DNA of 64,000 nucleotides from an uncultured Thermodesulfobacteriota bacterium (GCA_964387595.1 CAYLYF010000001.1:18747-82746); one strand, 5' to 3'. Shown: positions 2,219 to 59,106, counted from the first letter of the stretch. Notes: a model not told the origin generated them from the letters alone. A program made the numbers and translations.

Positions 2219-2219
2219 A

Positions 2220-5073: not shown

Positions 5074-5213
5074 GGCTGCAGCCAAAGTTATAACGTGTTT
5101 GCTGAAAAACCTTGCATTCCCCCCCATAAAGTATGTTATCATAATGGCACATATTCGATAAGGTTCGTTTAAAGCAGTTTAGGCGGGTCTTATGAGCCAT
5201 AAACATAATCGTG

Positions 5214-5245
5214 ACGATTTTCTGAAAAGTTTATCCGGATCCTTT
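5214..5245. repeat. intergenic motif copy 2 (TGAC-N-TGAAAAGTTTATCCGG-Tn)
   Basis: Same 16-mer plus similar flanks (upstream TGAC, downstream T-run). Confidence 0.5.
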
Positions 5246-5467
5246 TTATACCGGGACAGGGTCTGCCGCATTAAATCGCACCTCAAGTCATTTTTTAAAT
5301 GATCGGAAATTTAGAGCAGCGTACAGCTAAGTCTGCCTCCTTTCTACAGGGGTGTGTCGTTTTAAAGATGCACGCAAAATCTTTTCACAAAACCGTTTGA
5401 TCCCAAATTTTACAAGAGGACCTCTAATTAGAATTCCAGAATTATTCTGGTCAGGATTGGTAAACTC

Positions 5468-10710: not shown

Positions 10711-10749
10711 AAGCGGCTGAAGTATTTGCTGTGATGAAAAGACTTTTTA

Positions 10750-11910
10750 TTAAGGTTTATCAATTATTTGAACCTGGCTTCCTTCAAGGAGCCTTTCCCT
10801 GCCGGAGACAACGACTATCTGGTTCGGACTGATGCCTTTGCTGATCACGACGTTTGTTCCGATAAAAGATGAAGGGATGATCTTTGTTCTGTGTGCCGTA
10901 TTGTCTTTGATTGTCCATGCATAATAAACCCCGTTATTTTCATAGATCGCTTCTTCGGGAAGTGAGATCACGTTTGAGAAGTTGTCCGTATTTATGGTCG
11001 TTCTTGCAACCATTCCGGGCTTTAAAATAGGATCTTTGTCATTGTTTATCATTATTTCCGCCGGAAAGGACAGGGTCTTGTCGTCTGCTTTTGTGCCTAC
11101 ACTGTCTATGGTTCCCCTGTATTTTTTGCCGGGATAGGCATCTGTTTCTATGATGACTTCCTGATCTTTCTGGAGCCGTGCCACCACCTGTTCAGAAACA
11201 CCGATTTTTATTTTTACCTTGTCTATGGCCACAACTGTTGCCACCATTGTTCCCAGTCCCACATTTGATCCGATGTCAACGGTGCGTTCTGCCAGTATTC
11301 CTTTAAAAGGGCTTTTTATCAGTGTTTCGCGCAGTTCTCGCTGCGCGATTTTAAGGGCGGCTTTGGAAGACTTTAAAAGTGCTCTTTTGGTTTTTTCATT
11401 TGCTTTTGCCGCATCAAATTCAAACTCTGAAATGACCTTTTTATCAAAAAGATTTTTCTTCCGGGCAAGGTCCTTTTTGCCCACATCATGGGCAGCTTCA
11501 AGCTGCAGTACATTTGCTTCAGCCTGTTCAACAGTGTATCCCAGTACTTCGTCATCGATTTTAAGGATGGGATCGCCGGGTTCGAGCGGATCACCAATCT
11601 TTGCATTGATTGATTTTACTTTTCCGGACACTTCTGAAAGTATCCGGGCCTGCTGCCTTGCCTGGATCACACCTGAATACTTTATGAATTTTGAGATGTC
11701 TCCCGGTTTTGCCTTTACAACCCTTACCGGCACAAGGCTTTCTGTTTTTATTGAGGCGTCGGACCTCTGCAAAGCTTTCTTTTTTATTGTGCGTCCGGCA
11801 AGAAGACAGATAAAGAGTAAAACCAGGACCAGTGGAATAATGATCCATATCCTTTTTTGCTTTTCCAGTTTGTGATTTACAGGTTTTTTCGGGCTTAGCG
11901 GTTCAGTCAT
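10750..11910 (-). CDS. RND efflux membrane fusion protein (HlyD/AcrA family)
   Basis: 386 aa. N-terminal TM, coiled-coil and lipoyl/beta-barrel domains typical of membrane fusion proteins. Confidence 0.85.
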   Translation of the reverse strand: MTEPLSPKKPVNHKLEKQKRIWIIIPLVLVLLFICLLAGRTIKKKALQRSDASIKTESLVPVRVVKAKPGDISKFIKYSGVIQARQQARILSEVSGKVKSINAKIGDPLEPGDPILKIDDEVLGYTVEQAEANVLQLEAAHDVGKKDLARKKNLFDKKVISEFEFDAAKANEKTKRALLKSSKAALKIAQRELRETLIKSPFKGILAERTVDIGSNVGLGTMVATVVAIDKVKIKIGVSEQVVARLQKDQEVIIETDAYPGKKYRGTIDSVGTKADDKTLSFPAEIMINNDKDPILKPGMVARTTINTDNFSNVISLPEEAIYENNGVYYAWTIKDNTAHRTKIIPSSFIGTNVVISKGISPNQIVVVSGRERLLEGSQVQIIDKP

Positions 11911-18856: not shown

Positions 18857-19846
18857 CTAAGGAGAAAGAAGTTTAATAAGAGAATGATATTCTCCGGCAC
18901 CTATCTGTTCTGCCCCTTCCTTGCCATAATCAGGGAAATTAACGCTTCCAACTGGTTGAAAAACGTAGATATTGGTAAAATCGGCATATCCAAAACCCAG
19001 CTCGCCGTTACTATTACTACCGGCTGCCAAAAGAGAGCCGTCGCAGTTTAAAACGGAGAAGCTGGCGCCACAGCCCATGTTTGTTACAGAAGAAAGAATA
19101 ATCTCGGGCGTTTCAGCATAGTCGCCGCCCGAATCGCTTCCTAAACCGATCTGTCTATTAGTATTACTCCAGCAGGCATAAAGAGCGCCTGTGGTCAGGC
19201 GGATCAGGGTATGCCTTAACCCGGCCCTGGCAAAATCAACACCCGTTTTACTTTGGACTAAAGTTTTATAATCATTATTACCGTCTGTATGAATGGTGCC
19301 GTCAGTTGCAAGATAAACTGTAAATGAAACACCTCCGGCAACCTGTACCACGTTGTCAGCCAGTTTAGTCCATTCAGTGACCGGATTATTGTGTCCAAGC
19401 CCAAGCTGGCCATCAAAATTAGATCCCACACCCCACAGCTCATCTGTGTCCGTAATGACATAAGAATTATATCGTGTTGCACAGATGCTATTTACTGTTC
19501 CTGAAAAGGTGCAGGCTGTCCAGGTGCTCCTGTTTATATTTGTTCCGTCACCCCGCTGATAGCTGCTGTTGCTGCCCGTTGCAAATAAAGTATAGTCGGC
19601 TGTTATCAGAAAGAGCTCGCTCTCATCAAAAACATCCGGGCCATCAGCAGAAGCTATTTTTATTATATAATCACTTTCGGCGACGCCTTCTACCGTCCAG
19701 TAAAAGCTGTCGGTATTCGGCGCAGGATTTGAAATGGTAATTGTCTGGGCATAAGAGGTTTGATCCATATCTAAAACTGCAAAGGTTAAAAACATTGCAG
19801 CAGTCATAAACAGGGGCAAAAAATATTTTATGTTTTTAAAGCGCAT
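18857..19846 (-). CDS. secreted RCC1-repeat (beta-propeller) protein
   Basis: N-terminal signal peptide. Several GxLGLG / GELGFG RCC1-type blades. Confidence 0.7.
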   Translation of the reverse strand: MRFKNIKYFLPLFMTAAMFLTFAVLDMDQTSYAQTITISNPAPNTDSFYWTVEGVAESDYIIKIASADGPDVFDESELFLITADYTLFATGSNSSYQRGDGTNINRSTWTACTFSGTVNSICATRYNSYVITDTDELWGVGSNFDGQLGLGHNNPVTEWTKLADNVVQVAGGVSFTVYLATDGTIHTDGNNDYKTLVQSKTGVDFARAGLRHTLIRLTTGALYACWSNTNRQIGLGSDSGGDYAETPEIILSSVTNMGCGASFSVLNCDGSLLAAGSNSNGELGFGYADFTNIYVFQPVGSVNFPDYGKEGAEQIGAGEYHSLIKLLSP

Positions 19847-20031
19847 ATAAATTACTCCCCCAAAGATTTATAAAGCCTATTTATAGTATATATTAAATTC
19901 TCATCGATTTATCCATGGGTGTAAACCCCCGGATATTTTGGGTGTTTATGGTTTGTTATGGTTTTACGGTGTGTTAAAGATGTTTTGGTAATACAGGCAA
20001 AGCGGAAATAAAATAGAGTGAAGAAGGGGGT

Positions 20032-21042
20032 TTAACAGATCCTGGGCAGAAGTTCTCCTGCAGGAAGGTCGATCTGTCGGGTTCCGCCGATCACGGTTTG
20101 AAGAATGAGTCTGCCTTTTTTTTCTTCACTGACTTCTCCGATGATGGCGGCATTTTTTCCAAAAGGATTATTTTTCATTATTTCCAGGATATTTTGAGCA
20201 TAAGATGATGGACAAAAAAGCACCATCTTTCCCTCATTGGCAAAAAAGAGCGGATCAAGACCCAGTATTTCACAGGCTCCCCGAACCTTGTCATTAATCG
20301 GGATTTTCACCTCATCAATATTTATGGTGTGACCGGATTGTGATGCGATTTCTGAAAGGATGCCGCCGAGTCCGCCCCGGGTGGCATCCCGCATGCAGTG
20401 GACTTCAGGACAGGATTTAAGTATCTGTTCAACAAGTTTATTCAGTGGGGCTGAATCGCTGATAATGTCTGAACTTAGATTAAGGTCTTCTCTTTTGTTA
20501 AGAATGGCGGCTGCATGATCGCCGATGGTGCCGTTTATGATGATGGCATCGCCCGGTCTTATTTCCTGGACAGAGATGTTTGCCTCATACTTAATGAGGC
20601 CTATGGCGGAAGTGTTGATAAAGATTTTGTCTGCGGCCTCTTTATTAACGACTTTGGTGTCCCCGGTAATGATGTGAACGCCGGCATTTTTGGCAGCTTG
20701 ACCCATTGATGAAACAATTTCCTCCAGTTCTGAAATCTCAAATCCCTCCTGGATGATAAATCCCGCACTCAGGTAAAGGGGTTTTCCGCCGCGCATGGCA
20801 ATATCATTTACGGTGCCGTGAACTGACAATGAGCCGATGTTTCCACCGGGAAAGAAGATCGGATTTATGACGTATGAGTCTGTGGTGAAGCAGAGTTTGG
20901 TGCCGTTTATATCAAAGGCGGTGCTGTCTTCCATCTGGGAAAGAAGGGGGTTGTCAAAATGGGGTTTAAATTTTTCGGAGATGAGTTCCCCGGTTAATAG
21001 GCCGCCGCTGCCGTGGTCGAGGAGAATCTTGTTGTCACTCAT
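20032..21042 (-). CDS. hypE: hydrogenase maturation protein HypE
   Basis: 336 aa, AIR-synthase-like. MSDNKILLDHGSGG N-terminus. C-terminal PRIC. Confidence 0.9.
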   Translation of the reverse strand: MSDNKILLDHGSGGLLTGELISEKFKPHFDNPLLSQMEDSTAFDINGTKLCFTTDSYVINPIFFPGGNIGSLSVHGTVNDIAMRGGKPLYLSAGFIIQEGFEISELEEIVSSMGQAAKNAGVHIITGDTKVVNKEAADKIFINTSAIGLIKYEANISVQEIRPGDAIIINGTIGDHAAAILNKREDLNLSSDIISDSAPLNKLVEQILKSCPEVHCMRDATRGGLGGILSEIASQSGHTINIDEVKIPINDKVRGACEILGLDPLFFANEGKMVLFCPSSYAQNILEIMKNNPFGKNAAIIGEVSEEKKGRLILQTVIGGTRQIDLPAGELLPRIC

Positions 21043-21204
21043 AATACACCTTTTTGTTTATAATATGTTTTGGTTTTTAGAGATAATTCTTTTTCTTTAA
21101 AGGGTCCAGGGTTTCTCGGTCGTAGCAGAGAGCAGAGTAGAGCATTTTTGTTTCCAGATGTTATTCTCTATGCTTTTACCGTCATGCGCTTTGTATTCAT
21201 CGTC

Positions 21205-23472
21205 TTACAGCTGTGAAGCAGCACAAACGGCCTGTCCCAGGGAGATGCCGCCGTCATTGGGGGGGACAAGGCTGTGGGTGATGACTTCAAAGCCTTTATC
21301 CGCCATTTTCTTTACGCATCCTTCAAGAAGTATTCTATTTTGGAAACATCCACCGCTTAATACTACCCGGTTTAATTCTTTTTCATTTCTTAATATTTCA
21401 GCCATTTTTGTAAAAGAATCTACAAGCGTAGCGTGAAAAGTCGATGCCAGATATTTATTGTCTTTGCGGTCAAGCTTCATTTCAATAATATGCTTTATTG
21501 CAGGCATCAGGTCAAGGATATGGGCGTTTTGTTCATGGGTGATGCTGAATTCAAGTTCTGTATCATCACGCTGTTCTGCAATTGCTTCAAGTTCCATGGC
21601 AGCCTGTCCTTCAAAGCTTACGCTGTTTTTTATGCCGATCAGGCAGGAAACGCCGTCAAAGAGTCTTCCCAGACTTGAGGTGGTAAAACAGTTAATTTCT
21701 TTTTTAATGGCAGTTTCAAAAAGGTCAAGATTTTCATCTGTTGGGCAAAGGCTGAGTTCTTTTGCCAGCTGTTTCCATGAGCCGGGATGGGTTGTTCTGA
21801 TCAGGGAAAGTGCAATGCGCCATATCCGGCGGATGGAACTTTCTCCTCCGGGAATGAGGATGTTTTTTAAATGTCCTGCACGGCTAAAATCTTTTTCATT
21901 TGCAATTAAAAATTCTCCGCCCCAAACTGTATTCTCCGGGCCGTAACCGGTACCGTCCATTGCAATTCCAATAACATCTCCGGATATATTATTTTCTGCC
22001 ATACAGCTTACAATATGGGCATGGTGATGCTGGACCGGGATGATTCTTTCAGGTCCCATTTCTTTTGCAAGGGCCGTAGAAAAATAATCCGGGTGCATGT
22101 CGCAGGCAATGATTTTTGGGGATGTATTTGAAACAGCTTTAAGCAGGTTTACGCTTTCGCGAAGAAAATCACGGGCCTCAGGTGTTTCAAGGTCACCAAT
22201 ATGGGGGCTTAAATAGGCTTTTCCCCCTTTCGTAATACAGGCTGTTGATTTCAGGTGAGGGCCCAGAGCTAGTACCTCAGGATAGTTCTTGTTAAGCCTG
22301 ACGGGTGAGGGCACATAACCCCGTGAACGGCGAAGCATAACCGGATTTCCGGATAATACCATTGCGATCGAATCATCGTTTCTGACCCGTATGTCCCGGT
22401 TGTGGATCAGGAAAAATTCTGCAATACCTGAAAGTCTTGTTACGGCTTCTCTGTTCCCAATGCAGATCGGCTCATCTTTTTTATTGGCACTTGTCATGAC
22501 AAGTGCCTGGAAACTGTTTTCAAAAAGAAGATGCTGAAGCGGTGTGTAGGGAAGCATGATTCCAAGAGAGGGAAGATCTCCGGCGATCACTTTTGCAAGG
22601 GAAGAAAAAGTTTTCTTTTTTAACAGTACAATTGGGCATTCTGGAGAAAGAAGCAATTTTTTTTCTTTTTCATTTATCTCACACAGCTCTGCGGCCTGCA
22701 GTATATCTTTTACCATTACAGCAAAGGGTTTTTCTTCCCTGAACTTGACTTCCCTTAGTTTTTTCACTGCCTCGCTGTTATATGCATCAGCACACAGGTG
22801 AAAACCGCCAAGACCTTTTATGGCTGCTATCTGCCCGTTTGAAAGAATCTCTATAATATCAAGAACCGGATCATCCGAGCTTATTTCGTTACCTTCTTTG
22901 TCCAGCAGCCATAATTTTGGGCCGCAGTCCGGACAGGCATTGGGCTCAGCATGGTAGCGCCGGTTATTCGGATCTTCAAATTCTCGGCTGCAGGAGCGGC
23001 ACAAAGGAAAACAGGACATGGAGGTATTGGCCCGGTCGTAAGGCACATTTTTTAATATGGTTAATCTCGGGCCGCAGTTTGTGCAGTTAATAAAAGGATA
23101 GCGGTATCTCCGGTTGAGCGGGTTTAAAAGGTCATCTTTGCAGGCGATGCAGGTGGCTATGTCAGGCGTGATCAGAACGTCAGGACGTGCGTCAGACGTA
23201 CTTTTAAGGATTTTAAATTGCCGGTCATTTTCCGGAGGAATATCTTCTGTTACGACTTTTTCAACCTGTGACATGGGGGGGTAGCAGCTTGATAGTTCAT
23301 TGTAAAAGAGATCCAGTGCAAATGATCCCCCTTCAACCTCAAGCAGAACCCCCTTTCCGGTGTTTTTTATAAAGCCTGTAAGGCTATGACGGCACACAAG
23401 TCTGTAAAGGGAAGGGCGAAAACCCACTCCCTGAACAATTCCTGTAAATAAGGAGCGAAGCCGTTTCTGCAT
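21205..23472 (-). CDS. hypF: carbamoyltransferase HypF
   Basis: 755 aa. Acylphosphatase domain, two CxxC Zn-finger pairs, YrdC-like and Kae1-like domains. Confidence 0.9.
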   Translation of the reverse strand: MQKRLRSLFTGIVQGVGFRPSLYRLVCRHSLTGFIKNTGKGVLLEVEGGSFALDLFYNELSSCYPPMSQVEKVVTEDIPPENDRQFKILKSTSDARPDVLITPDIATCIACKDDLLNPLNRRYRYPFINCTNCGPRLTILKNVPYDRANTSMSCFPLCRSCSREFEDPNNRRYHAEPNACPDCGPKLWLLDKEGNEISSDDPVLDIIEILSNGQIAAIKGLGGFHLCADAYNSEAVKKLREVKFREEKPFAVMVKDILQAAELCEINEKEKKLLLSPECPIVLLKKKTFSSLAKVIAGDLPSLGIMLPYTPLQHLLFENSFQALVMTSANKKDEPICIGNREAVTRLSGIAEFFLIHNRDIRVRNDDSIAMVLSGNPVMLRRSRGYVPSPVRLNKNYPEVLALGPHLKSTACITKGGKAYLSPHIGDLETPEARDFLRESVNLLKAVSNTSPKIIACDMHPDYFSTALAKEMGPERIIPVQHHHAHIVSCMAENNISGDVIGIAMDGTGYGPENTVWGGEFLIANEKDFSRAGHLKNILIPGGESSIRRIWRIALSLIRTTHPGSWKQLAKELSLCPTDENLDLFETAIKKEINCFTTSSLGRLFDGVSCLIGIKNSVSFEGQAAMELEAIAEQRDDTELEFSITHEQNAHILDLMPAIKHIIEMKLDRKDNKYLASTFHATLVDSFTKMAEILRNEKELNRVVLSGGCFQNRILLEGCVKKMADKGFEVITHSLVPPNDGGISLGQAVCAASQL

Positions 23473-23474
23473 GT

Positions 23475-24131
23475 TTATCCTTTAAACTGTTCTATTTGAC
23501 CGGTCAGCCAGGAGACCCATTGGTCAAGCCCTTGACCTGTTTTGCATGAAACCCCAAAGATGTTTAAGTCCGGGTTAATGCTTTTTGCGTCTTTTAAAGC
23601 CTTTTTCATATCAAAATCAACATAGGGTAAAAGGTCGGTTTTGTTGATGAGCAGCGCGGTGGATTCCTTGAACATGAGCGGGTATTTCATGGGTTTGTCC
23701 GCACCTTCCGGCGTGCTTAGCAGCATTACTTTTATATTCTCCCCAACTGAAAATTCTGCAGGGCATACTAGGTTTCCCACGTTTTCATTGATGATGAAAT
23801 CGATCTCATCCATATTAAACCCGGGGAAGGTCTCACGGATCATATTGCCGTCAATGTGACAGGCCCCGCCGGTGTTGATCTGGGCAACCGGAATGTCGAG
23901 CTTTGCGATCCGCTCAGCATCATAGGTGTCCTGAATATCGCCTTCGATGACTGCTATCCGGAACTTATCTTTAAGCGCCTTGATCGTTTCTTCAACCAGG
24001 GTTGTTTTTCCGGCTCCCGGTGAACTCATCAGGTTGATCACGTAAATATTTTTTTCGTCAAACAGTTTCCTGTTTTCCTGAGCGATCCTGTTGTTTGCGT
24101 CAAGTACATTCTTTACCACGTTTATTTTCAT
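23475..24131 (-). CDS. hypB: hydrogenase nickel-incorporation GTPase HypB
   Basis: 218 aa. P-loop SPGAGKTT. CH motif GGACH. Confidence 0.9.
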   Translation of the reverse strand: MKINVVKNVLDANNRIAQENRKLFDEKNIYVINLMSSPGAGKTTLVEETIKALKDKFRIAVIEGDIQDTYDAERIAKLDIPVAQINTGGACHIDGNMIRETFPGFNMDEIDFIINENVGNLVCPAEFSVGENIKVMLLSTPEGADKPMKYPLMFKESTALLINKTDLLPYVDFDMKKALKDAKSINPDLNIFGVSCKTGQGLDQWVSWLTGQIEQFKG

Positions 24132-24148
24132 TTTTAAAACCTCTCGGG

Positions 24149-25237
24149 TCAGTGATATTTATAATAGGTTGAACAGGTGCCTTCAGAAGACACCATGCAG
24201 GGGCCTATGGGATTTATAGGGGTACATGCTTTCTTGAAAAGCGGGCACTCCCCGGGATTTTTTATGCCGCGCAGGATGTCCCCGCAGGAACAGCCTGTAA
24301 TTTCTTCAGGAATGATTTCCGGTATTTCAAAACGTTTCAGAGCATCAAAACTGCTGTATTCATTTTTAAAGACAAGTCCGCTTCCGGGAATGTTGCCGAT
24401 GCCTCTCCATTCAGCAGAACAGGCTTCAAAAACTTCAAACAGGATGTTCCGTGCCTTTTTGTTTCCCTCCGGGGAAACCGCTCGTTTGTACTGAATCTCG
24501 ATTTTTTTCGTATCGTTAATAATCTGTTCGAGTATTAAATAGATGCCTTCCAGAATATCAACAGGCTCAAATCCGGTGATGACTGCACTGCGTCCTGCCT
24601 TTATAATATCTTTATAAGCCTCTGTTCCGGTAATGGTGCTCACATGTCCTGGACACAGAAAGCCGTCAATGGCAAGGGCTGGATCTTCAATCAGTATCTT
24701 TATAGCCGGGGGCATTGTCTTCATTACACAATACACAGAAAAATTCCAGATATCTTTTTTATGACATGTTTTGATTACAGATGCAATTGTTGGGGAAGTG
24801 GTCTCAAATCCGATTCCCATAAAGATGATCTCTTTTGAAGGATTGTCCTGGGCTAGTTTGATGCAGTCGGCAGCAGAGGTAACGATCCGGATGTCTGCGC
24901 CTTCTGCTTTTGCCGTCTGAAGGCTTCTCCGGTTTGAACCCGGCACCCGTATCATATCTCCAAAGGTTGTAAATATGGTATTTTTAATATTGGAAAGAAA
25001 GACGGCCGTATCGACTTCGCGGGCAGAAGTGACGCATACCGGGCAGCCCGGGCCTGAAACCAGTTTGATGTTTTCAGGGAGCAGGTTCCGTATACCGAAT
25101 TTACCGATGGCATTTGTGTGGCTGCCGCACACTTCCATGAGGGTGATATTTCCGGGTATTTTTTCTGCACGGGTTTTTATGCCTTTAATCAGGCTTTTTA
25201 CCAGGTCAGGGTTTCGGTATTCATCAATTAATTTCAT
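24149..25237 (-). CDS. hypD: hydrogenase maturation factor HypD
   Basis: Motifs CPVCVTS, GFETT, CPGHVS. Start refined to internal Met (MKLIDEYRNPD). Confidence 0.9.
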   Translation of the reverse strand: MKLIDEYRNPDLVKSLIKGIKTRAEKIPGNITLMEVCGSHTNAIGKFGIRNLLPENIKLVSGPGCPVCVTSAREVDTAVFLSNIKNTIFTTFGDMIRVPGSNRRSLQTAKAEGADIRIVTSAADCIKLAQDNPSKEIIFMGIGFETTSPTIASVIKTCHKKDIWNFSVYCVMKTMPPAIKILIEDPALAIDGFLCPGHVSTITGTEAYKDIIKAGRSAVITGFEPVDILEGIYLILEQIINDTKKIEIQYKRAVSPEGNKKARNILFEVFEACSAEWRGIGNIPGSGLVFKNEYSSFDALKRFEIPEIIPEEITGCSCGDILRGIKNPGECPLFKKACTPINPIGPCMVSSEGTCSTYYKYH

Positions 25238-25252
25238 GGGTTTAAAAATATT

Positions 25253-25280
25253 TTGCCGGTGGCAGGCCACCGGCAAAATT
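25253..25280 (-). terminator. perfect 12-bp-stem, 4-nt-loop hairpin with flanking A/T runs between the barrel gene and hypD (candidate intrinsic terminator or attenuator)
   Basis: ttttgccggtgg-cagg-ccaccggcaaaa. On the minus strand it is followed by tattttt. Confidence 0.5.
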
Positions 25281-25318
25281 CTATTGCTTATTGTGAACTT
25301 TATTCTATGAACATCATA

Positions 25319-26224
25319 CTAGAAATAGAATACAACATCAAAGGTAAAACGGTCGCGCATCAGGTTGGCATTCTTGTCTGTGAGGGGGGTCTCGTAGGCA
25401 ACACCAATATCCATATTGTCCATGCAGCGGAAACGCATGCCTGCTGCCAGGGTCACGATATGTTTGTTTCTTTTTCCATGGCTTGAACCCAGGTTGATCA
25501 GGTCGCCGCCTTCAAATTCAGCAATGCTGGCGACCAGCTCTTTGCGGTTTCCTTCTTTTACAACAGCAAAATGATTTAGCTCGATGAGCGGAAATATTCT
25601 GGGGGTTAATGCATAACTTACGTGAAGGTTGTTGAACATGATGGTGCTTTCGTCATCACGGTCTAAAGGAATGATCGCTCCCGTTCCGCCGTTGATCTGG
25701 AATTTGCCCAGTCCTTTTAAGAAACTAATTTGAGCAGAAATGTTTCCGTCTCCATTACCCTGGAATACGTCGTTGCTTCCCTGGGTGAGTTCAACCATCA
25801 AGCGTCCGGAAACGATAAGTTCTTTTTCAGGATTATAGATAAATGCATATTTTACGCCGGCACCATAGTCGCCCCAGCCGTCTTCACTTGAAAGGGTATT
25901 GTCAGGATTAAAATCAATATAACCTGTTTTTTCTGCAACAAGTGAAAGCTTTTCATTGATTGCATACGTGAGCTGAAGTGCTGTGACATTTAGGTCACCG
26001 TCAAGTTTAACATCACCAAGTGCAGTTTTGATATGTTCAGGCATTTTCTGACGAGCATGAATCACTCTAATTGATGTTTCATTACGTGGATCAATTGAAT
26101 AGACCGGGTTGCTTAAGGGCCTGATAAACCGTGAAAACGGTTTTTCATCCTCAGCAAAAGCTGAAATGCTGGTCAAGAAACTGAGTGCAGTTGTGATTGC
26201 AAGAATAATCAATTTGTTTTTCAT
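25319..26224 (-). CDS. outer-membrane beta-barrel protein (MetA-pathway/transporter-like OMP)
   Basis: 301 aa. Signal peptide. Alternating amphipathic strands. C-terminal aromatic ...VVFYF. Confidence 0.55.
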   Translation of the reverse strand: MKNKLIILAITTALSFLTSISAFAEDEKPFSRFIRPLSNPVYSIDPRNETSIRVIHARQKMPEHIKTALGDVKLDGDLNVTALQLTYAINEKLSLVAEKTGYIDFNPDNTLSSEDGWGDYGAGVKYAFIYNPEKELIVSGRLMVELTQGSNDVFQGNGDGNISAQISFLKGLGKFQINGGTGAIIPLDRDDESTIMFNNLHVSYALTPRIFPLIELNHFAVVKEGNRKELVASIAEFEGGDLINLGSSHGKRNKHIVTLAAGMRFRCMDNMDIGVAYETPLTDKNANLMRDRFTFDVVFYF

Positions 26225-26321
26225 GGGTTGCCTCCTCTTGAAGTTCTATAGTTTAACCTAGTTTATACAGTATTCGTTTTTGCTTGACGGGGTGTTTCCT
26301 TTTGTATTTCTTTCCTTTCTG

Positions 26322-26573
26322 TTAGGGATGTGATTCTATTTTTTTGTCCTCGTCTTTATCTAATATTTCCTGTAACAGCTTAAGCCGTTCTCGGGCTTCA
26401 ATATGATCTACCTTATGAATGGCAAAGCCGGCATGACAAATTACGTAGTCTCCAATGCTGACATCTTCATCTATAATGTCGAGACAGGTCTCTCGCTGTG
26501 TACCGCCCACATCTATGGCAGCATAGTTGTCTTCATCTATGGAGAGGATCTTACCCGGGAAGCCTATGCACAT
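26322..26573 (-). CDS. hypC: hydrogenase assembly chaperone HypC/HupF
   Basis: Start refined to MCIGFPGKI (essential Cys2). 84-aa HypC-sized product. Confidence 0.85.
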   Translation of the reverse strand: MCIGFPGKILSIDEDNYAAIDVGGTQRETCLDIIDEDVSIGDYVICHAGFAIHKVDHIEARERLKLLQEILDKDEDKKIESHP

Positions 26574-26772
26574 GATTTTTCCTTTAATAGTGGATGGCTC
26601 GTCAAAAGTCCAACTTCTGTGTTGCACTGCTTCCTCTGTCATTGCAGCGTACGAAAGTACGCCTCATTCCTTTGGACTTGCGCGCCTTGAATTTGAAGCT
26701 TTTTACTTTGCCATCTTTTTAAATTATCATGACTTAAACAGCAGTATGAATTTTGTTAACTAAGCTGTTAAA

Positions 26773-27117
26773 TCAGTCTACATCCATATCAATAATTTTT
26801 AGCTCTTCAGTCCCACCGATAAGGGTGACCTCGGGACTGCCACACTTCGGGCAGTCTGATCCGAACTCTTTTACCTCCAGGTCTTTGCTGCATTCGAAGC
26901 AGTGAATTCGGGGAGGAAGTATCTTGAAATTCAGTTTAGCCCCTTCTGCGCAGCTGCCTTTTGCCTGTATTTCAAAGGCGGTACAAAGGGTGGAAGTCTC
27001 AACGCAGGCAAGTCTGCCAAGTGTCAGACTAAGAGAATTAACCTTTTTAAAACCGTGTTTTCCAGCATACTCATCAATTATTTCAAGTATGGACTGTGCC
27101 AGAGAAAGTTCATGCAC
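26773..27117 (-). CDS. hypA: hydrogenase nickel insertion protein HypA
   Basis: GTG start giving (M)HELSLAQSI. Zn-finger CFECS...CPKCGS. Confidence 0.85.
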   Translation of the reverse strand: MHELSLAQSILEIIDEYAGKHGFKKVNSLSLTLGRLACVETSTLCTAFEIQAKGSCAEGAKLNFKILPPRIHCFECSKDLEVKEFGSDCPKCGSPEVTLIGGTEELKIIDMDVD

Positions 27118-27607
27118 AATTTTTAAGCTCCGGAACAATATTAAGTTTTTGAAGCTCCTTTAATAGTAAATCTTCCATCTTCTGAAAACGCTTTTGTATT
27201 TTATCAGTCATCTCAAGATTCATATCTCCGTATTCATACGGGACGATACAGAGAAAAACTGTTTCAGGCGAGTCTTCAATGAGTTCTGCCTGATTGAGGA
27301 CATCAAAGAATTCCACTTCGTGCGCAGAGGTAGGCTCTGGCAGATGAAGCTTCATTTCCTCTTTGTTGAAACGGTAAATAGACCCCGGCGTGTCATCTGT
27401 TTTTATGGTATCTATGACGATCAGGTTTTGGGTTCCGGAGATAGTGTCCAGCAGGCTGTATCCAAGTGTTCCTCCGTCAACAATATCTGCATTTTCAGGG
27501 AAGCGGTATTTTTCATTGAAAATTCGTGTGAAATGGACACCGAAGCCTTCATCTGTCAGGAGAATGTTGCCGAGTCCGAGTACTCTCAGGTATTTTTTTT
27601 CTTCCAT
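27110..27607 (-). CDS. [NiFe] hydrogenase maturation endopeptidase (HyaD/HybD family)
   Basis: 165 aa. N-terminus LRVLGLGNILLTDEGFGVH. Confidence 0.85.
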   Translation of the reverse strand: MEEKKYLRVLGLGNILLTDEGFGVHFTRIFNEKYRFPENADIVDGGTLGYSLLDTISGTQNLIVIDTIKTDDTPGSIYRFNKEEMKLHLPEPTSAHEVEFFDVLNQAELIEDSPETVFLCIVPYEYGDMNLEMTDKIQKRFQKMEDLLLKELQKLNIVPELKNCA

Positions 27608-27663
27608 TAGGTAAGCCGTGCAGGACAGACAGAAAGGGATTTTTCTGTCTGTCCTGTAAAAGA

Positions 27664-28332
27664 TTATTTATTTTTCTTCTTAAACAACAGGCCGCTTATC
27701 ATGGAAGAAACCGTTCCTTCGCGAAAAACGCAGTCGTACCAGAAAGCCATATAAAGATGTACAATAAAAAACAGCATAAATAGCCACATGACGATGTGGT
27801 GGATGTAGCGTACACCTGCCAGACCGCCCATCATTGTTTCGACGGGTCTTAACAGTTCATATGTCCAGGCCGTGATGCCTGCATGATAGCCTGCCCCGGT
27901 TAAGATAATGCCGGTGAGAACGATCATAAACAGCATAAAGATACAGCCGCCATAAGCAAGGGATTGCATGGGCCCGTATAAAAAACGATGTGCAGGTGGT
28001 TTGTTTGATACCAGCATATAGAATTTTATCTGTTTGATCATGTTTTTTGGATCTGCCCAGGCAAAGAAGTCTTTCCAGTCTGCGTGAAAACTGGAAAAGA
28101 ACATTAAATACATTCTCCAGATGAAAATAAAAACAAGAAAAACCCCGAATAGAATATGGATAAAACGCATATCTCCCATCAGGAATTTCCAGGTTGTTTC
28201 GCCGGAGGAAACAGAGAAGGGCATTGCAATGTAAAAGCCGGTAACGATAAGTGTGATTATCGATGCTACCATGCCCCAGTGGTTAACTCGTATAGCTGGT
28301 GACCATTCTTTTTTTGCGGTCCTGGTATCCAC
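27664..28332 (-). CDS. Ni/Fe-hydrogenase b-type cytochrome subunit
   Basis: 222 aa, four TM helices with conserved His ligands. Immediately downstream of the large subunit. Confidence 0.8.
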   Translation of the reverse strand: MDTRTAKKEWSPAIRVNHWGMVASIITLIVTGFYIAMPFSVSSGETTWKFLMGDMRFIHILFGVFLVFIFIWRMYLMFFSSFHADWKDFFAWADPKNMIKQIKFYMLVSNKPPAHRFLYGPMQSLAYGGCIFMLFMIVLTGIILTGAGYHAGITAWTYELLRPVETMMGGLAGVRYIHHIVMWLFMLFFIVHLYMAFWYDCVFREGTVSSMISGLLFKKKNK

Positions 28333-28419
28333 CGTTAGCTCCTTTCAAATTTAACAGCTAAGTATAAACAATGTTTTTAGCTGTGTTTTTTGTTTTATTT
28401 TATGACTTTAGTCTTTCAC

Positions 28420-30090
28420 CTAAGCCACTTTAAACTTCTTCACTTTGTTTGTTTTCGGATCAATGATATGAACAGCACATGCCATGCATGGATCAAAGGA
28501 ATGGATGGTCCGGATGATCTCAAGCGGCTGATCAATGTTTGAAAGTTTTGTTCCAATAAGAGCTTCTTCATACGGGCCGCGTTTTCCGGATTTATCCTTT
28601 GGCGCCGCATTCCAGGTGGACGGGACGATGGCCTGGTAGTTTTCAATGACCTTATTGTCTATGTTAATCCAGTGACCCAGTGCACCGCGGGGAACTTCGT
28701 TCATGCCGCGTCCCTGGCTTTTTTGCGGAACATCACAGCGGGTCCAGGTCCGGGTGTCGCCTGATTTAAGGTTTGCGATCAGTTCATTGACCCAGCCTTC
28801 GGTACGATCAGCCACCAACTTTGTTTCAAGTGCACGGGCTGCTGTTCTTCCCAGGGTTGAAAAAAGAACTGTTATCGGAAGACCGGTTGCTTTCAGGGTG
28901 GAGTCGACCAGATGCTTGATCTCGTTATGTCCTTGTGAGTAACCCACTATAAAACGGGCCAGAGGACCGACTTCATAGGGCAGTCCATCGTAACTCGGCG
29001 CTTTACACCAGGTGTATTTCTCATCTCCTTTTACATTTCCTTTGCTGTCATAGCCGGTATATTCTGGTTCTGTCTTTCCTTTGTAGGGGTGAAGCGATTC
29101 TTCGCCCTTATACCAGGAATGTTTTACTCCTTCGGTTATTTTGTTTTCATCCAGTTCTAGAGGATTTGAGATGTCTCCGCCAACCACAACGCCTTTTGGG
29201 AGGAGAGTTTTCTGCCAGTCATCGTCAAGCGGGAATCCGCCGTAACACAGGTAATTCTTCACGCCTGCGCCGATACCGGCTGCGCCTTCATCTTTGTATG
29301 CGCCGGCTGCGATCAGCACGTCAGGAATATAGGCTGTTTCCATAAAGTTCTGTAATTCTTTGAATTTGAAAAGATACTGTCCGATCCTGTTTGCATTAAG
29401 GTCGTCTACGCAGGTCACTCCGCCCACCACAAGGCTTTGCGGGTGGGGGTTCTTTCCGCCGAAGATCGCCATCATCTGTGCGCCGAGTTTTGAAACCTTA
29501 AGTGCGTCGAGGTAATGAGAGACGATCACCAGGTTTTCTTCCGGAGACAGTTTGAAGGATGAATTGCCCCAGTAGGCATTGGCAAAAGGTCCGAGGCGTC
29601 CGGATTTTACAAACTTGGTCAGTCTTTTCTGTACGGCCCTGTAGTTTGTTTCTGAGCAGTTGTATGGATTATCATTATAGCTCTTGGCCAGATCCACTGC
29701 TTTTTTCGGGTCTGCTGAAAGTGCACTGACGATATCTACCCAGTCCAGTCCGTGCAGGTGATAGAAGTGCATGATGTGATCATAAATAAACTGTGATGCC
29801 TTGATCAGGTTCCTGACCAGACGGGCGTTCGGTGGCGGGGTCACGCCAAAGGCATCTTCACAGGCCATGATGCTTGCTTCATAGTGAGAGTAGGTACATA
29901 CACCGCAAAAGCGCTGTACGATGAGTCCCGCATCTCTCGGGTCACGGCCTTTTAAGATGGTTTCGATTCCGCGCCATAGCGTTATTGAACTCCAGGCATC
30001 CTGGATTACATTATTGTCATCTACTTCGACTTCTATTCTTAAATGTCCTTCGATCCGTGTGATCGGATCAACAACAATTCTTTTTCCCAT
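28420..30090 (-). CDS. [NiFe] hydrogenase large subunit (group 1, Cys-type)
   Basis: 556 aa. N-terminal RIEGH...CGVC. C-terminal DPCMACAVH plus a cleavable tail. Confidence 0.95.
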   Translation of the reverse strand: MGKRIVVDPITRIEGHLRIEVEVDDNNVIQDAWSSITLWRGIETILKGRDPRDAGLIVQRFCGVCTYSHYEASIMACEDAFGVTPPPNARLVRNLIKASQFIYDHIMHFYHLHGLDWVDIVSALSADPKKAVDLAKSYNDNPYNCSETNYRAVQKRLTKFVKSGRLGPFANAYWGNSSFKLSPEENLVIVSHYLDALKVSKLGAQMMAIFGGKNPHPQSLVVGGVTCVDDLNANRIGQYLFKFKELQNFMETAYIPDVLIAAGAYKDEGAAGIGAGVKNYLCYGGFPLDDDWQKTLLPKGVVVGGDISNPLELDENKITEGVKHSWYKGEESLHPYKGKTEPEYTGYDSKGNVKGDEKYTWCKAPSYDGLPYEVGPLARFIVGYSQGHNEIKHLVDSTLKATGLPITVLFSTLGRTAARALETKLVADRTEGWVNELIANLKSGDTRTWTRCDVPQKSQGRGMNEVPRGALGHWINIDNKVIENYQAIVPSTWNAAPKDKSGKRGPYEEALIGTKLSNIDQPLEIIRTIHSFDPCMACAVHIIDPKTNKVKKFKVA

Positions 30091-30145
30091 TTTATTTATT
30101 CCTCCTCGGAATTAACATTAAAGATATTATATAAAGGTCGGCTCT

Positions 30146-31339
30146 TTATTCATCCTCAGGTTTAGGGCGTTTTATTGCAGAGGCAATGCCGTGAGCTGCA
30201 ATACCTGCTGCGGTAACTCCCAGAAGAGTGGCACCTATTTTGTCCACTGTTTTTTCACCGCCGCCGATGGTTTTTTCGGATATGGGTTTTTCAAAAGGCG
30301 ACATGGTGTCCCAGAAGCCCGGTTCGGTACAGCCCATGCAGCCGTGTCCAGCCTGTACCGGCCAGGATGTACCGTCATTAAATTTTATTTTACTGCAGTT
30401 TGCATAGGTGTAGGGACCCTTGCAGCCCATTTTATAAAGGCACCATGCCTTCTGTGCGCCGGCATCTCCCCATTCTTCAACAAATTCAGCTGCATCATAG
30501 TGGGCACGGCGTTCGCAGAAATCATGGATCCGTTTACCGTATGCCCATAAGGGCCTTCCCAGAGAATCTGCAGGCGGTAAAGATCCGAACAGAAGGAAAT
30601 GGAGCAGGGTTCCCACAAAGTTAGCCGGATTCGGAGGACAGCCCGGAATGTTTAAAGTTTTTATGCCGATGGCATCACTGATGCCTTTTGCATCGGTTGG
30701 ATTAGGCTTCGCCGCCTGAACACCGCCGTAAGAGGAACAGGTTCCGATACAGATGGTGGCAGCCGCTTTTGAAGTGACCTCTTTTGCGATTTCGAGCCCT
30801 GTTTTTCCTTTGGGACCCAGGGTCAGATATTTTCCGTTCATGCCAGTGGGAATGGCACCTTCAATAACACAGATAAATTTTCCTTCAAAATCATGCATGG
30901 CCTTTTCAAGGCATTCTTCTGCCTGATGTCCTGCGGCAGCCATGAGTGTTTCGTGATATTCAAGGGAGATGGTCTCAAGCAGGATATCATCTATGTTCGG
31001 GTAAGATGTCCGAAGCAGAGATTCGCTGCATCCGGTACATTCTGCAAAATGAAGCCATACCACAGGGAGACGGGAAAACTTTTCTGCTGCTTCGGCTACT
31101 TTTGAGCTGAATACCGGCGGAAGCATAAGTGCGGCAGTCATCAGAGAGGACCATTTTACGAAATCCCTCCGGGTGACGCCGTTTTCCTTAAGCGCTTCGT
31201 TCAGATCTTCTTTTGCCGGCGGTAATTCCGTGTTTATTTTTTCCAGATTAAGATTGCAGCGTTCCATTAGATCCTGGTACTGCCTGGAAAGGTTGTCTTT
31301 TCCATCGCTCTTCTTGTAGCCCATACTGATTCCTTTCAA
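30146..31339 (-). CDS. [NiFe] hydrogenase small subunit with Tat signal
   Basis: Twin-arginine RRDFVK. FeS-cluster Cys pattern. C-terminal TM anchor. Confidence 0.9.
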   Translation of the reverse strand: MKGISMGYKKSDGKDNLSRQYQDLMERCNLNLEKINTELPPAKEDLNEALKENGVTRRDFVKWSSLMTAALMLPPVFSSKVAEAAEKFSRLPVVWLHFAECTGCSESLLRTSYPNIDDILLETISLEYHETLMAAAGHQAEECLEKAMHDFEGKFICVIEGAIPTGMNGKYLTLGPKGKTGLEIAKEVTSKAAATICIGTCSSYGGVQAAKPNPTDAKGISDAIGIKTLNIPGCPPNPANFVGTLLHFLLFGSLPPADSLGRPLWAYGKRIHDFCERRAHYDAAEFVEEWGDAGAQKAWCLYKMGCKGPYTYANCSKIKFNDGTSWPVQAGHGCMGCTEPGFWDTMSPFEKPISEKTIGGGEKTVDKIGATLLGVTAAGIAAHGIASAIKRPKPEDE

Positions 31340-31822
31340 ACTTTATCAATTAAGGGTTGTCTTAAATATCTCTAGTAAAAAAAACGCAAAAACGTTTTAC
31401 TTTCCTTGAAAACGCTGTTACCACTCTTTTTGAAGGTAAAAATTTGAAAAATTGTACATTAATAAAAAAGGTATGACAAGCCGCAATTATGTCTTAAGCC
31501 AAAGTAAATTGTCATCTTAACTGCTTTGCGACAATGTCATTTAAAGTGTATTTTGGCGTATGCAAAAAATAGAATGTTATTTAATGTATTTTAAAAAAAT
31601 AAAAAAATGGATGTTTTGAAAATAAAAGGACGGGGTATTGTTTTTAGATTTTTTTTAACCTTAAAGTCATTCTATGTTAACTATCCTTCTTAACAAAGAG
31701 CCCGGCGGTATGTGGCTGGAATTAGTGCAAGAATTACCTTAGATATCCTGTTGCTGAGGGATATCTAAGAAGGGTTTCTGGAGAGAGAATAACAGATGTG
31801 AAAGGTTAAGTTGTAAAAAGGG

Positions 31823-32299
31823 CTATTTTTTTTCCTGTTCCCGTGCTGCCAGCCGGTTCTTTCTCCGGGTCTGGGCCTGGCTGTTTCGCTGCTTTCCATC
31901 TTCTGTCTCAAAGATAAGTGGCGGGATCTGAGTGGGTCTGCCGGCTTTGTCCAGAGCGACAAAGGTAAGATAGGCAGAGGCATTGTGTCTGACCTCTCCG
32001 GTCAGCAGGTTTTCAGATTCTATCCTGACTCCGATCTCCATGGAGGATTTCGCAGTGAGGTTGATGCTTGCTTTAAGGGTCAGAAGGTCGCCCACAAAAA
32101 CCGGATAGTGAAATACCAGACTGTCAATGGATGCGGTGACAGAGTTATTTCGGCTGTGTCTGAAGGCAACAATGCCGGCTGTTTCATCAACATGTTTCAT
32201 GATGATGCCGCCGTGGACATTTCCAGCAGGGTTCGCATCTTCCGGCATCATTATTTTGGATGTGGTTATAGCGCTGTCTTTTACTTTTTTGCTTTCCAT
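31823..32299 (-). CDS. acyl-CoA thioesterase (hotdog fold, YciA-like)
   Basis: Motif GNVHGGIIMKHVDETAGIVA. The start may be an internal Met. Confidence 0.7.
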   Translation of the reverse strand: MESKKVKDSAITTSKIMMPEDANPAGNVHGGIIMKHVDETAGIVAFRHSRNNSVTASIDSLVFHYPVFVGDLLTLKASINLTAKSSMEIGVRIESENLLTGEVRHNASAYLTFVALDKAGRPTQIPPLIFETEDGKQRNSQAQTRRKNRLAAREQEKK

Positions 32300-32405
32300 C
32301 GGTTAACTCCTTAAGCCCTTTATGCTGGCGTTATGACCTCTGTTTTTATCGGAAAAATTTGAGGTTTTTTGTTTTGTCATATTTTTATGATTTTTTACGG
32401 CTGTA

Positions 32406-34010
32406 TTATCTATAACGTATTCTGTTCTCTTTTGTCAGTGAGAGACTGGACAGGCTGTTTAGTCTGTTTTCAACAATACTTCGCAGGGTAATATATGTCG
32501 ACATTTTTTTTTGGTTCTTAAATATGAAATATTTGTCACCGCCGGATGCCAGAAATGAATTTATAGCAACTTTATAGGATCTTTCAGAAATAAGTGGTTC
32601 ATATCCCCGGTTAGGGTCAAGAATTTTTATATTTGATACCCGTTTCCCCTTGTTGATGATTTTTAATTCACCGGTTGTTTTATCTTTTTTTATTTTAAAA
32701 GAGTTCTTGTTTGTATCCACATCAAAACGAAGCCCTGAGACCTGGAGAAAACCGCCGTATTCTAAAGGAAGAAAAGAGACGCTCTGTTCAAGGATCTGTT
32801 TTATTTCATACCCCTTAAGCGAAAGTATGGAAATCTGGTTTTCAAAAGGAAGCATGGTATCAATATCTTCAGTTGTAATATTTCCGGGAGGTATTATCCT
32901 TTCTCCTCTTATTCCGCCGCTGTTTTGAAAGGCAACGTCTACGTTAAAATGTTCTCTGATTATGTCAGCTATCATGTTTCCGGCTGCTGCTTCCCGTGTC
33001 CTCAGGGTCTCTCCTCTGCAGTCCAGTGCTTTTTTTAAAATGGTTAAAACTTTTCCTTCGGGAAGATCTTTATTGTAGGATGTTATAAGGTCAAGCGCTT
33101 TTTTATCCTGCCTTATCTTTGAGGTGACCCTGATCGGTTCCCATAAGTGACTTATGATGTTTCCCTTTTCTACGACCATACTCAGCAGACCCAGATATTC
33201 ACCTCGTGCCCCGGCATGGGTTATTATTGTCTTTCGGCCGTCTGCATGGTTAATAACCGTTTCTTTTTCTTTTTCCATCAGATCATGTGAATGCCCCCCG
33301 CAGATCAGGTCGATCTCCGGTACTTGACCGGCAAGCTTAATATCTTCTTCAAGGCCGAGATGGGTTAAGGCCACGATCAGGTCCGGGGATTCTTTCTGCT
33401 TCAGACTTCTGATCATATTAACTGCCGATCCTGCGATGTCAGGATCAACAGCAACATTATTGCCGGCGTTTGAGATAAAGCTAAGGTCTGGGGTCATCAG
33501 ACCGATGACACCGATTTTTATACCGTTTCTGTTAATGATCTTAAATCTTTCAAAGCTGTTTTTTAAAGAACTGTTGTCTATGGTCTCAAGGTTTGATTCA
33601 ACAATCGGGAAACTGCAATATTTTAACGCATTGGAGAGTGCTTCCACTCCCCTGTCAAACTCGTGGTTTCCAAGGGTGGCCGAATCTATCCCGAGCAGGG
33701 ACATGGCTGAAAAGATGGCCTCACCCTTAAACCGGAGAAAGTATTTGCCGGTCAGGCTGTCTCCCGAAGAAAATAAAACGGTTTTTTGCTTGTTCAGTTT
33801 TTTTATTGTTTTAACAACAGAGGCGATGCGGGTTATCCCGCCGGCGTTTGAAGTGCCATTATCTTTTTCAGCGGCAAAAGGTTCCAGCTGACCGTGGAGG
33901 TCTGAGGTCGTCAGAATAATAAGCTCTCTCGGTTCAGCCCGGGAAGAAACTGCAATCAGGAGAATGACAAAAAAGAAGAAAAATGATTTTATCAGGCTGT
34001 TTTTTTTCAT
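32406..34010 (-). CDS. secreted bifunctional metallophosphatase/5'-nucleotidase (UshA-like)
   Basis: Signal peptide. DLHG, GNHEFD and GGHSH motifs. C-terminal 5'-nucleotidase domain. Confidence 0.8.
   Translation of the reverse strand: MKKNSLIKSFFFFFVILLIAVSSRAEPRELIILTTSDLHGQLEPFAAEKDNGTSNAGGITRIASVVKTIKKLNKQKTVLFSSGDSLTGKYFLRFKGEAIFSAMSLLGIDSATLGNHEFDRGVEALSNALKYCSFPIVESNLETIDNSSLKNSFERFKIINRNGIKIGVIGLMTPDLSFISNAGNNVAVDPDIAGSAVNMIRSLKQKESPDLIVALTHLGLEEDIKLAGQVPEIDLICGGHSHDLMEKEKETVINHADGRKTIITHAGARGEYLGLLSMVVEKGNIISHLWEPIRVTSKIRQDKKALDLITSYNKDLPEGKVLTILKKALDCRGETLRTREAAAGNMIADIIREHFNVDVAFQNSGGIRGERIIPPGNITTEDIDTMLPFENQISILSLKGYEIKQILEQSVSFLPLEYGGFLQVSGLRFDVDTNKNSFKIKKDKTTGELKIINKGKRVSNIKILDPNRGYEPLISERSYKVAINSFLASGGDKYFIFKNQKKMSTYITLRSIVENRLNSLSSLSLTKENRIRYR

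Positions 34011-55599: not shown

Positions 55600-59106
<3,507 letters not shown>

Follow-up and report, generated by a model that had tools for sequence, protein, structure and literature searches.

Why does a gene for an outer-membrane protein stand among the maturation genes of a [NiFe] hydrogenase? The question is raised by a 64,000-nucleotide (nt) stretch of DNA from an uncultured Thermodesulfobacteriota bacterium (GCA_964387595.1, CAYLYF010000001.1:18747-82746), referred to below as the window and numbered from its first letter, in which a gene of the minus strand (25319–26224; ATG start, 301 aa, C-terminal end ...FDVVFYF) lies between hypC and hypD. It had been proposed from the sequence alone that this gene encodes an outer-membrane beta-barrel (hereafter the barrel) which could supply nickel, or another substrate, for hydrogenase maturation. 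We found that the barrel belongs to a family repeatedly and independently linked to periplasm-facing respiratory enzymes, a link not found in the literature searched, and that the linkage of the gene is to hydrogenase, not demonstrably to nickel.

The open reading frame (ORF) and its termini, i.e., a signal peptide and an aromatic C-terminus (...VVFYF), were confirmed from the sequence, and so was the co-directional position between hypC and hypD, the flanking genes being identified by Pfam and NCBIfam and all lying on the minus strand. The segment 25238–26224, originally assigned to the gene, comprises the gene and the 81-nt spacer to hypD, position 25238 being the base that adjoins the hypD start codon (ATG 25237–25235). 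The barrel gene is not a chance ORF, because a word-indexed search yielded 232 homologues at E ≤ 1e-3, with full-length identities down to about 40%, a profile search of 1.84 billion representatives recovered 962 clusters at 50% identity (E ≤ 1e-3), and 50 blocks of the collection contain the identical gene (24 contigs read). The contig is present in the samples JGI 3300022838 and ENA ERZ27315831. The subfamily occurs in Desulfobacterota, Verrucomicrobiota and Planctomycetota.

Gene contexts of the barrel family

Relatives of the barrel were gathered from 80 genome and 80 metagenome loci and by individual look-ups (about 170 loci, cited by number as L003 and so on). These were screened with the hydrogenase and Hyp proteins of the window and with markers taken from recurrent neighbours, the marker identities being checked by Pfam. 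We found the family close to group-1-type [NiFe] hydrogenase genes, no more than a few hundred bases away, in at least four gene orders. The hypC-barrel-hypD order (arrangement A) is shared by the window, L003/L087/L088, L170, L086, L009/L092, L011 and L112. Arrangement B, which starts with the small (SSU) and large (LSU) subunit genes and reads SSU-LSU-..-hycI-barrel-hypA-hypB-hypF-hypC-hypD-hypE, is present in L094, L095, L102 and L020. Arrangement C, hycI-barrel, is found in L126, with no downstream hyp genes within 6 kb. In turn, the barrel heads the module barrel-SSU-LSU-cytochrome b in L139, L142, L144, L149 and L151 (arrangement D). Further hydrogenase loci are L093 (barrel-LSU) and L106, where the genes are divergent. 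Since the large subunits of the other arrangement groups are only 41–46% identical to that of the window and fall into separate clades, representing at least three hydrogenase lineages, these linkages are, judged from the sequences, independent recruitments. The barrel homologue of L126 (10001–10908) is split over two frames (10001–10642 and 10627–10908), which may reflect a frameshift or pseudogene or an assembly error.

Hydrogenases are not the only partners. In Verrucomicrobiota the family is located inside cbb3-oxidase clusters (24 loci) in several orders, including ccoNO-ccoP-barrel-ccoG-DsbD_2-ccoI, DsbD_2-barrel-ccoI and barrel-ccoI-ccoNO. In Rubritalea-type loci (L034/L035/L036/L046/L133), an AraC-family regulator with a PocR sensory domain is positioned directly beside the barrel, downstream of the cbb3 cluster, together with a small 111-aa protein carrying a CxxCH haem-binding motif. 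Three other links were seen at one locus each and serve as supporting anecdotes. In L169 (6001–12438), a Tat/selenocysteine periplasmic formate dehydrogenase begins 45 bp after the barrel, its fdhA being called in two pieces (187 and 816 aa), consistent with an in-frame selenocysteine TGA. L113 (7505–10870), the sole locus of its kind, has the order cydA-cydB-barrel and encodes the copper-free, high-affinity cytochrome bd oxidase. In L008 (3764–7116), the genes of a periplasmic [FeFe] hydrogenase are found 850 bp upstream of a barrel gene 60% identical to that of the window; its large subunit has 417 aa and its small subunit, with the Tat motif RRQFVK, 109 aa, and fdhAB and fdhE-like genes precede it.

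Other recurrent contexts include Liv-type ABC uptake operons, in eight of which the barrel gene stands between the ATPase and the binding protein genes, a CstA/DUF6512/isoamylase neighbourhood and the order CBS-GNAT-barrel-formate-tetrahydrofolate (THF) ligase-RACo. The copy of the cultured Desulfuromonas acetoxidans (L167) has an uninformative context. The neighbour families most often met among 155 non-redundant loci are the [NiFe] large subunit (16), the small subunit (13), CcoNO (13) and CcoI (13). Hydrogenase or hyp genes are found within 6 kb in 24 of 166 barrel-bearing loci, the rest of the copies being elsewhere. Whatever the genomic context, 56 alignment columns are at least 85% conserved over 151 sequences.

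Conservation of the hypC-barrel-hypD order

The proposed check, whether orthologous hyp operons of relatives carry the same insert, had a positive outcome. The hypC-barrel-hypD order is kept in identical contigs, at 77–80% barrel identity in L003/L087/L088 and L170, at 67% in L086, at 60% in L011 and down to 51% in L009/L092. That such a gene is not a normal part of hyp operons was likewise borne out by L172, a Syntrophales-type locus with a HypD 65% identical to that of the window, which has the same ten-gene operon without the barrel gene and in which hypC overlaps hypD by 14 nt, the canonical coupling (4784–6095). In the full-text literature searched on COG4313, PF13557, hydrogenase/hyp and cco, no barrel gene in hyp, hydrogenase or cco clusters is described, although absence there is no proof. 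A gene for a NikR-type regulator follows hypE in L172 (10160–10576).

L172 groups within the barrel-bearing operons when HypD and large-subunit sequences are compared by neighbour joining. The trees are distance-based and carry no support values, and the nesting is indicative only; it would suggest that the insertion is old, the gene having been lost once or gained more than once. The barrel gene has a GC content of 43.2% and a third-position GC content (GC3) of 42.7%, equal to its neighbours. A recent horizontal insertion was considered and rejected, as GC and GC3 match those of the neighbours and a palindrome at the barrel|hypD junction, described below, is no dispersed REP-like repeat. Universal co-inheritance with [NiFe] hydrogenases and restriction to them, the traits of a Hyp protein, are not seen in this family, and the barrel is not a Hyp protein.

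The predicted protein

The N-terminus MKNKLIILAITTALSFLTSISAFA|EDE reads as a signal peptide of the SPase-I type, without a lipobox cysteine. It spans residues 1–24 (26153–26224, minus strand) with cleavage after SAFA, and the AlphaFold model (AF2) shows a helix at residues 2–19 followed by a low-confidence linker. Cleavage would leave a mature protein of 277 aa, whose C-terminal V-V-F-Y-F fits the outer-membrane beta-signal. The AlphaFold model, built with 22 homologues (mean pLDDT 81, pTM 0.78), comprises twelve long antiparallel strands and a short hairpin in loop 1, and a Foldseek search gave the same top matches, of the COG4313/FapF-like fold class. The original prediction of a beta-barrel is confirmed by this model, which describes an outer-membrane barrel of 12 strands. 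The 26 residues before strand 1 (residues 25–50, EDEKPFSRFIRPLSNPVYSIDPRNET; 26075–26152, minus strand) are non-regular, with pLDDT of about 85, and include P36, N39 and P40, nearly invariant in the family. Because this segment is non-regular and yet confidently placed, with nearly invariant P36/N39/P40, it probably forms an in-barrel plug by analogy with Pput2725 (PMC4493636).

More specifically, the protein had been likened to MetA-pathway, transporter-type barrels, to be verified with PF13557. That assignment survives in part: fold match and transitive homology speak for it, whereas the window protein itself misses PF13557. It has no significant Pfam or NCBIfam model, PF13557 being unmatched at E ≤ 0.1 and DUF3187 alone appearing at E 0.0095. 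Yet 15 of 22 aligned family members match PF13557 (best E 6.3e-11), and many homologues at 43–48% identity carry a precomputed PF13557 domain. We thus regard the window protein as a peripheral COG4313/PF13557 relative, its relatives matching the model though it does not. Searches of PDB sequences with the single protein and with the family profile returned noise only and did not find 4rl8. Because the Pfam threshold is not reached and the plug is a prediction only, we file the barrel, by sequence, as a distinct compact subfamily at the edge of COG4313/PF13557 and not as a member in good standing.

Strand-parity analysis assigns to the lumen 9 acidic and 7 basic residues, one conserved His and many conserved Gly and polar residues. 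In the model, this composition would suit the holding of a plug better than the filtering of cations. The conserved extracellular loops are rich in Asp, Asn and Gly (DFNPD, VxQGxGDG, FEGxDxxNxG). Two further motifs, H201-x-S203 in strand 8 and E215-x-N217 in the adjacent strand 9, are 86–96% conserved across the family; by strand parity these four residues are predicted to face the lumen near the periplasmic end.

The hairpin at the barrel-hypD junction

Upstream of the barrel, the 97-nt spacer to hypC (26225–26321, minus strand) carries a ribosome-binding site, GAGGAGG (26231–26237), 6 nt from the barrel ATG. No terminator-like site was found in this spacer, and its promoter matches are no better than background; the only promoter-like matches near the barrel gene score 9/12, and such sites are no commoner than in shuffled sequence, which tells neither for nor against a promoter of the gene's own. 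The downstream junction is different in kind. A palindrome, ATTTTGCCGGTGG-CCTG-CCACCGGCAAAAT followed by ATTTTT (25250–25279, minus strand), is found here, with 39 nt between it and the barrel stop codon and 12 nt between it and the hypD ATG. Its 13-bp stem (ΔG −20.9 kcal/mol) makes it the longest-stemmed terminator-like site (13 pairs) in the 19.8–32 kb region. The core TGCCGGTGG-N4-CCACCGGCA is found exactly at the barrel|hypD junction, and in five operons whose spacers are otherwise unalignable the hairpin core TGCCGGTG...CACCGGCA is invariant, with four outer pairs that covary. In the relatives it lies at 10969–10996 (L003), about 4992–5021 (L170), 8957–8986 (L086) and about 10928–10956 (L009). 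The palindrome is unique in the 64-kb window, confined to the barrel|hypD junction in related loci and absent from the other fetched loci.

The placement of such hairpins follows that of the barrel gene, which is usually located at the edge of a structural gene module. In arrangements A, B and C and in the order ccoP-barrel-ccoG it closes the structural block, directly ahead of the assembly block, and a hairpin of ΔG −20 to −34 kcal/mol then follows it. Where the barrel comes first (arrangement D, L169, the Liv and formate-THF-ligase operons, barrel-ccoI), no such hairpin is found after it. The conserved hairpin is likely a partial terminator, an attenuator or an RNA 3' stabiliser which closes the structural transcript after the barrel and lowers hypDBFE expression; it could also be an operator or another protein-binding site. 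The palindrome is a possible control point, through which the expression of structural relative to maturation genes may be adjusted.

The hairpin also bears on where hypD begins. As homologues are mostly 362 aa long and MKLIDEYRNPD fits a HypD N-terminus, the true start is most likely ATG 25237 (MKLIDEYRNPD...) and not TTG 25276, which falls within the hairpin. The longest-ORF start at TTG 25276 and the public gene call on an identical contig (373 aa, start inside the hairpin) are probably wrong. ATG 25237 has no preceding Shine-Dalgarno sequence.

Possible roles of the barrel

What links the contexts described above is either an enzyme facing the periplasm or an uptake system, in each case consuming a very small molecule from outside (H2, formate, O2, amino acids or pyruvate). 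The barrel gene also keeps company with the structural genes. The conservation of the 56 columns irrespective of context argues, at the level of sequence, for one shared pore property. The explanation that we favour, though we give it slightly less than an even chance, is a narrow outer-membrane channel which couples envelope permeability to periplasmic respiration. The barrel would be a 12-stranded channel, narrow and probably plugged by its N-terminal segment, and would be expressed as the last gene of the hydrogenase structural transcription unit (SSU-LSU-cytochrome b-protease-hypA-hypC-barrel), the hairpin directly after it lowering or separating the expression of hypDBFE. Such a channel would pass across the outer membrane very small species needed or made by the periplasm-facing enzyme. 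Candidate permeants are H2, another small neutral or hydrophobic solute and small ions including Ni2+, with formate as a candidate in sister loci. In this scheme the barrel would not be a dedicated nickel-maturation factor.

Several points weigh against this explanation. H2 and O2 cross lipid membranes unaided, so the two commonest contexts do not obviously need a channel. Of the loci with flanks of 3 kb or more on both sides, 46 matched no hydrogenase, cco or CstA-group marker; some of these were subsequently assigned to Liv-ABC, formate-THF-ligase, cydAB or [FeFe]-hydrogenase contexts. Because of such marker-less loci and of the Liv-ABC, CstA and formate-THF-ligase contexts, the barrel may be a general porin placed by co-regulation only. 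Co-transcription we infer from strand, spacing and synteny only, and the narrow pore, the plug and the charge balance of the putative channel are predictions. Moreover, the characterised COG4313 members take up amphipathic or hydrophobic organics and not gases or ions (PMC4493636).

The supply of nickel to hydrogenase maturation, as the original prediction had it, can be widened to trace metals: the barrel would be a divalent-cation channel admitting Ni2+ to the periplasm for import and insertion by HypA/HypB and, in cbb3 clusters, Cu for CcoI-dependent assembly. Arrangements A and B indeed place the barrel among or next to hypA, hypB, hypC and hypD, the verrucomicrobial barrel often adjoins a CcoI-type P-type ATPase gene (gaps of 9–170 bp), the extracellular loops are conserved and Asp/Asn/Gly-rich, and the vestibule of Pput2725 is electronegative and weakly ion-conducting (PMC4493636). 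The enzymes beside the family, however, use Ni-Fe, Cu/haem (cbb3), Mo/W, i.e., oxyanions (formate dehydrogenase), haem only (bd) or Fe only ([FeFe]), yet the conserved core of the barrel is identical, and metals play no part in the Liv-ABC and CstA contexts. At the formate dehydrogenase locus, as in arrangements C and D, the barrel flanks structural and not maturation genes. The predicted lumen, with its acidic and basic residues nearly balanced and a single conserved His, has no cluster of His, Cys or Met, and no other metal-binding signature was found in the barrel. Nor are there hydrogenase-specific His, Cys or Met positions, the differences between hydrogenase- and cbb3-linked copies tracking phylum. 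No Ni transporter, whether permease or ABC system, was found within 10 kb on either side of the barrel gene, nor in a scan of ten window ORFs farther away, and no riboswitch, of the NiCo or any other class, in 19500–32500. Since the metals of the enzymes differ, the conserved core is constant and no metal-binding signature was found, a nickel-specific role is unsupported; the Ni-only association and the pore metal residues expected of dedicated outer-membrane Ni uptake are not seen. We consider metal supply unlikely.

A general small porin without any specific tie to hydrogenase, serving these phyla for ordinary diffusion, whose gene drifts into highly expressed or anaerobically/microaerobically regulated operons for the sake of co-regulation, would fit the diversity of contexts, the many loci without marker genes, the two copies present in some metagenome-assembled genomes (L029/L033; L042/L074) and the invariance of the core regardless of context, and L172 functions without the gene. 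Drift, however, can hardly account for independent recruitment in at least four orders and to at least three hydrogenase lineages, and again to cbb3, or for a hypC-hypD position kept to 51% identity with an invariant flanking palindrome. The family is also small for a general porin (962 clusters at 50% identity), and a pore of the Pput2725 type is too narrow for general nutrient flux. This explanation, too, seems doubtful to us.

An improbable but consequential variant of the favoured channel is a dedicated outer-membrane conduit for respiratory gases, carrying H2 to periplasmic hydrogenases and O2 to cbb3 and bd oxidases through a COG4313-like pathway for hydrophobic solutes that would bypass the lipopolysaccharide at nanomolar substrate. 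If true, a gas channel in the outer membrane would for the first time be tied to respiration. We regard as very improbable that the barrel is a classical COG4313 importer of amphipathic or hydrophobic molecules by lateral diffusion, or an outer-membrane lipid hydrolase acting through H201-x-S203/E215-x-N217, with an incidental location: the fold, the distant homology to detergent-binding channels with an implied part in the uptake of trichlorophenol and sphingosine, and the AraC/PocR-type regulator of the Rubritalea-type loci speak for it, but no aromatic or lipid catabolic genes were identified next to hydrogenase-, cco- or fdh-linked copies, the window protein scores below the PF13557 threshold, and the H/S/E/N residues are predicted to face the lumen near the periplasmic end and not the lipid, which disfavours the hydrolase in particular.

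Models of H2, formate and O2 respiration, and likewise of hydrogenase maturation, normally leave passage across the outer membrane out of account. The barrel family has been independently wired many times into respiratory operons of Desulfobacterota, among them lineages with a HypD most similar to that of Syntrophales, and of Verrucomicrobiota. If the link is functional, the narrow channel that we favour would be an unrecognised envelope component, which could set the affinity, or the threshold, at which H2 and O2 are scavenged, or could gate cofactor supply.

The hydrogenase operon and other genes of the window

The operon that harbours the barrel gene consists of 11 genes in the order SSU-LSU-cyt b-HycI-HypA-HypC-barrel-HypD-HypB-HypF-HypE, running on the minus strand from 31339 to 20032 with intergenic gaps of −29 to 162 nt. 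From its gene content, the operon encodes a periplasm-facing, cytochrome-b-linked [NiFe] uptake hydrogenase together with a full maturation set. The part from SSU through hypA (26773–31339) comprises the genes of the [NiFe] small subunit (30146–31339), which bears the Tat (twin-arginine) motif TRRDFVKW, the large subunit (28420–30090), cytochrome b (27664–28332), a HycI-type protease (27110–27607) and HypA (26773–27138). Next comes hypC, of the HupF/HypC family (26322–26642; PF01455, E 1.9e-23; TIGR00074), directly upstream of the barrel. Downstream of the latter, hypD (24149–25237; PF01924, E 2e-144, with the alignment starting at residue 25 of the long ORF) is followed by the remaining maturation genes (20032–24131), i.e., hypB (23475–24131), hypF (21205–23472) and hypE (20032–21042), all on the same strand. 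The nearest named relatives of HypD belong to Syntrophales/Smithella (about 65% identity).

Directly after hypE, a minus-strand gene (18857–19846) encodes a secreted RCC1-repeat (beta-propeller) protein. The relative at 79% identity, L003, lacks this gene and has a DUF2971 gene between hypF and hypE instead. Elsewhere the window carries genes for the A and B subunits of a V/A-type ATPase (455–3614), an RND efflux pump with its membrane-fusion protein (7627–11910), a cytochrome c554-like multihaem protein (44932–46284) and a pyruvate:ferredoxin oxidoreductase (55603–59106), which are consistent with an anaerobic, Desulfobacterota-like host.

Comparison with known systems

Known outer-membrane routes for nickel and copper are of another type. 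The TonB-dependent FrpB4 and FecA3 of H. pylori, as well as OprC/NosA and PcoB, differ from the window protein, a passive 12-stranded barrel of 277 aa. TonB-dependent receptors have 22 strands and a plug domain, for which the window protein is far too small, and it matches no TonB-dependent-receptor Pfam model. The Met/His-rich funnel of the known Ni/Cu routes is also missing, and no metal-specific feature was found in the barrel. It is not a TonB-dependent metal receptor, nor demonstrably a nickel system.

Transport genes embedded in hydrogenase/hyp clusters, such as HupE/UreJ, HoxN/NiCoT and NikABCDE, are a precedent for cofactor-supply genes in this position. In contrast to the outer-membrane barrel, these are inner-membrane helical transporters or ABC systems, and the barrel family, unlike them, is not restricted to Ni enzymes. 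FapF, the amyloid-secretion barrel of Pseudomonas (PDB 5o65), shows 13–15% identity to the window barrel, which has no fap genes nearby and lacks a coiled-coil/trimerisation N-domain. FapF exports a polypeptide, whereas nothing at the window barrel suggests secretion. The H201-x-S203/E215-x-N217 residues are reminiscent of the catalytic clusters of OMPLA and PagL, which act at the lipid-facing barrel surface.

The closest parallels are with the COG4313/PF13557 family, represented by Pput2725 (PDB 4rl8), TcpY and SphA. Members of the Pput2725 family are 12-stranded barrels whose lumen is occluded by an N-terminal segment, leaving a very narrow pore, and are thought to import hydrophobic or amphipathic molecules (PMC4493636). 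The window protein differs in that it has no PF13557 match (E ≤ 0.1), in that its family profile misses 4rl8 and recovers the 962 clusters only, in its gene contexts (respiratory enzymes instead of aromatic or lipid catabolism) and in its distribution among Desulfobacterota, Verrucomicrobiota and Planctomycetota, the characterised members coming from gamma- and beta-proteobacterial degraders. Yet the barrel shares with this family a signal peptide, a mature length within the range of 270–320 aa, the monomeric 12-stranded barrel type with a C-terminal aromatic beta-signal, a conserved N-terminal segment before strand 1 that probably lies in the lumen and a clustering of conservation in extracellular loops L2–L5, and its relatives at about 45% identity score on PF13557. 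If the link to periplasmic respiration is functional, it would provide a new physiological setting for the large and poorly understood COG4313 family.

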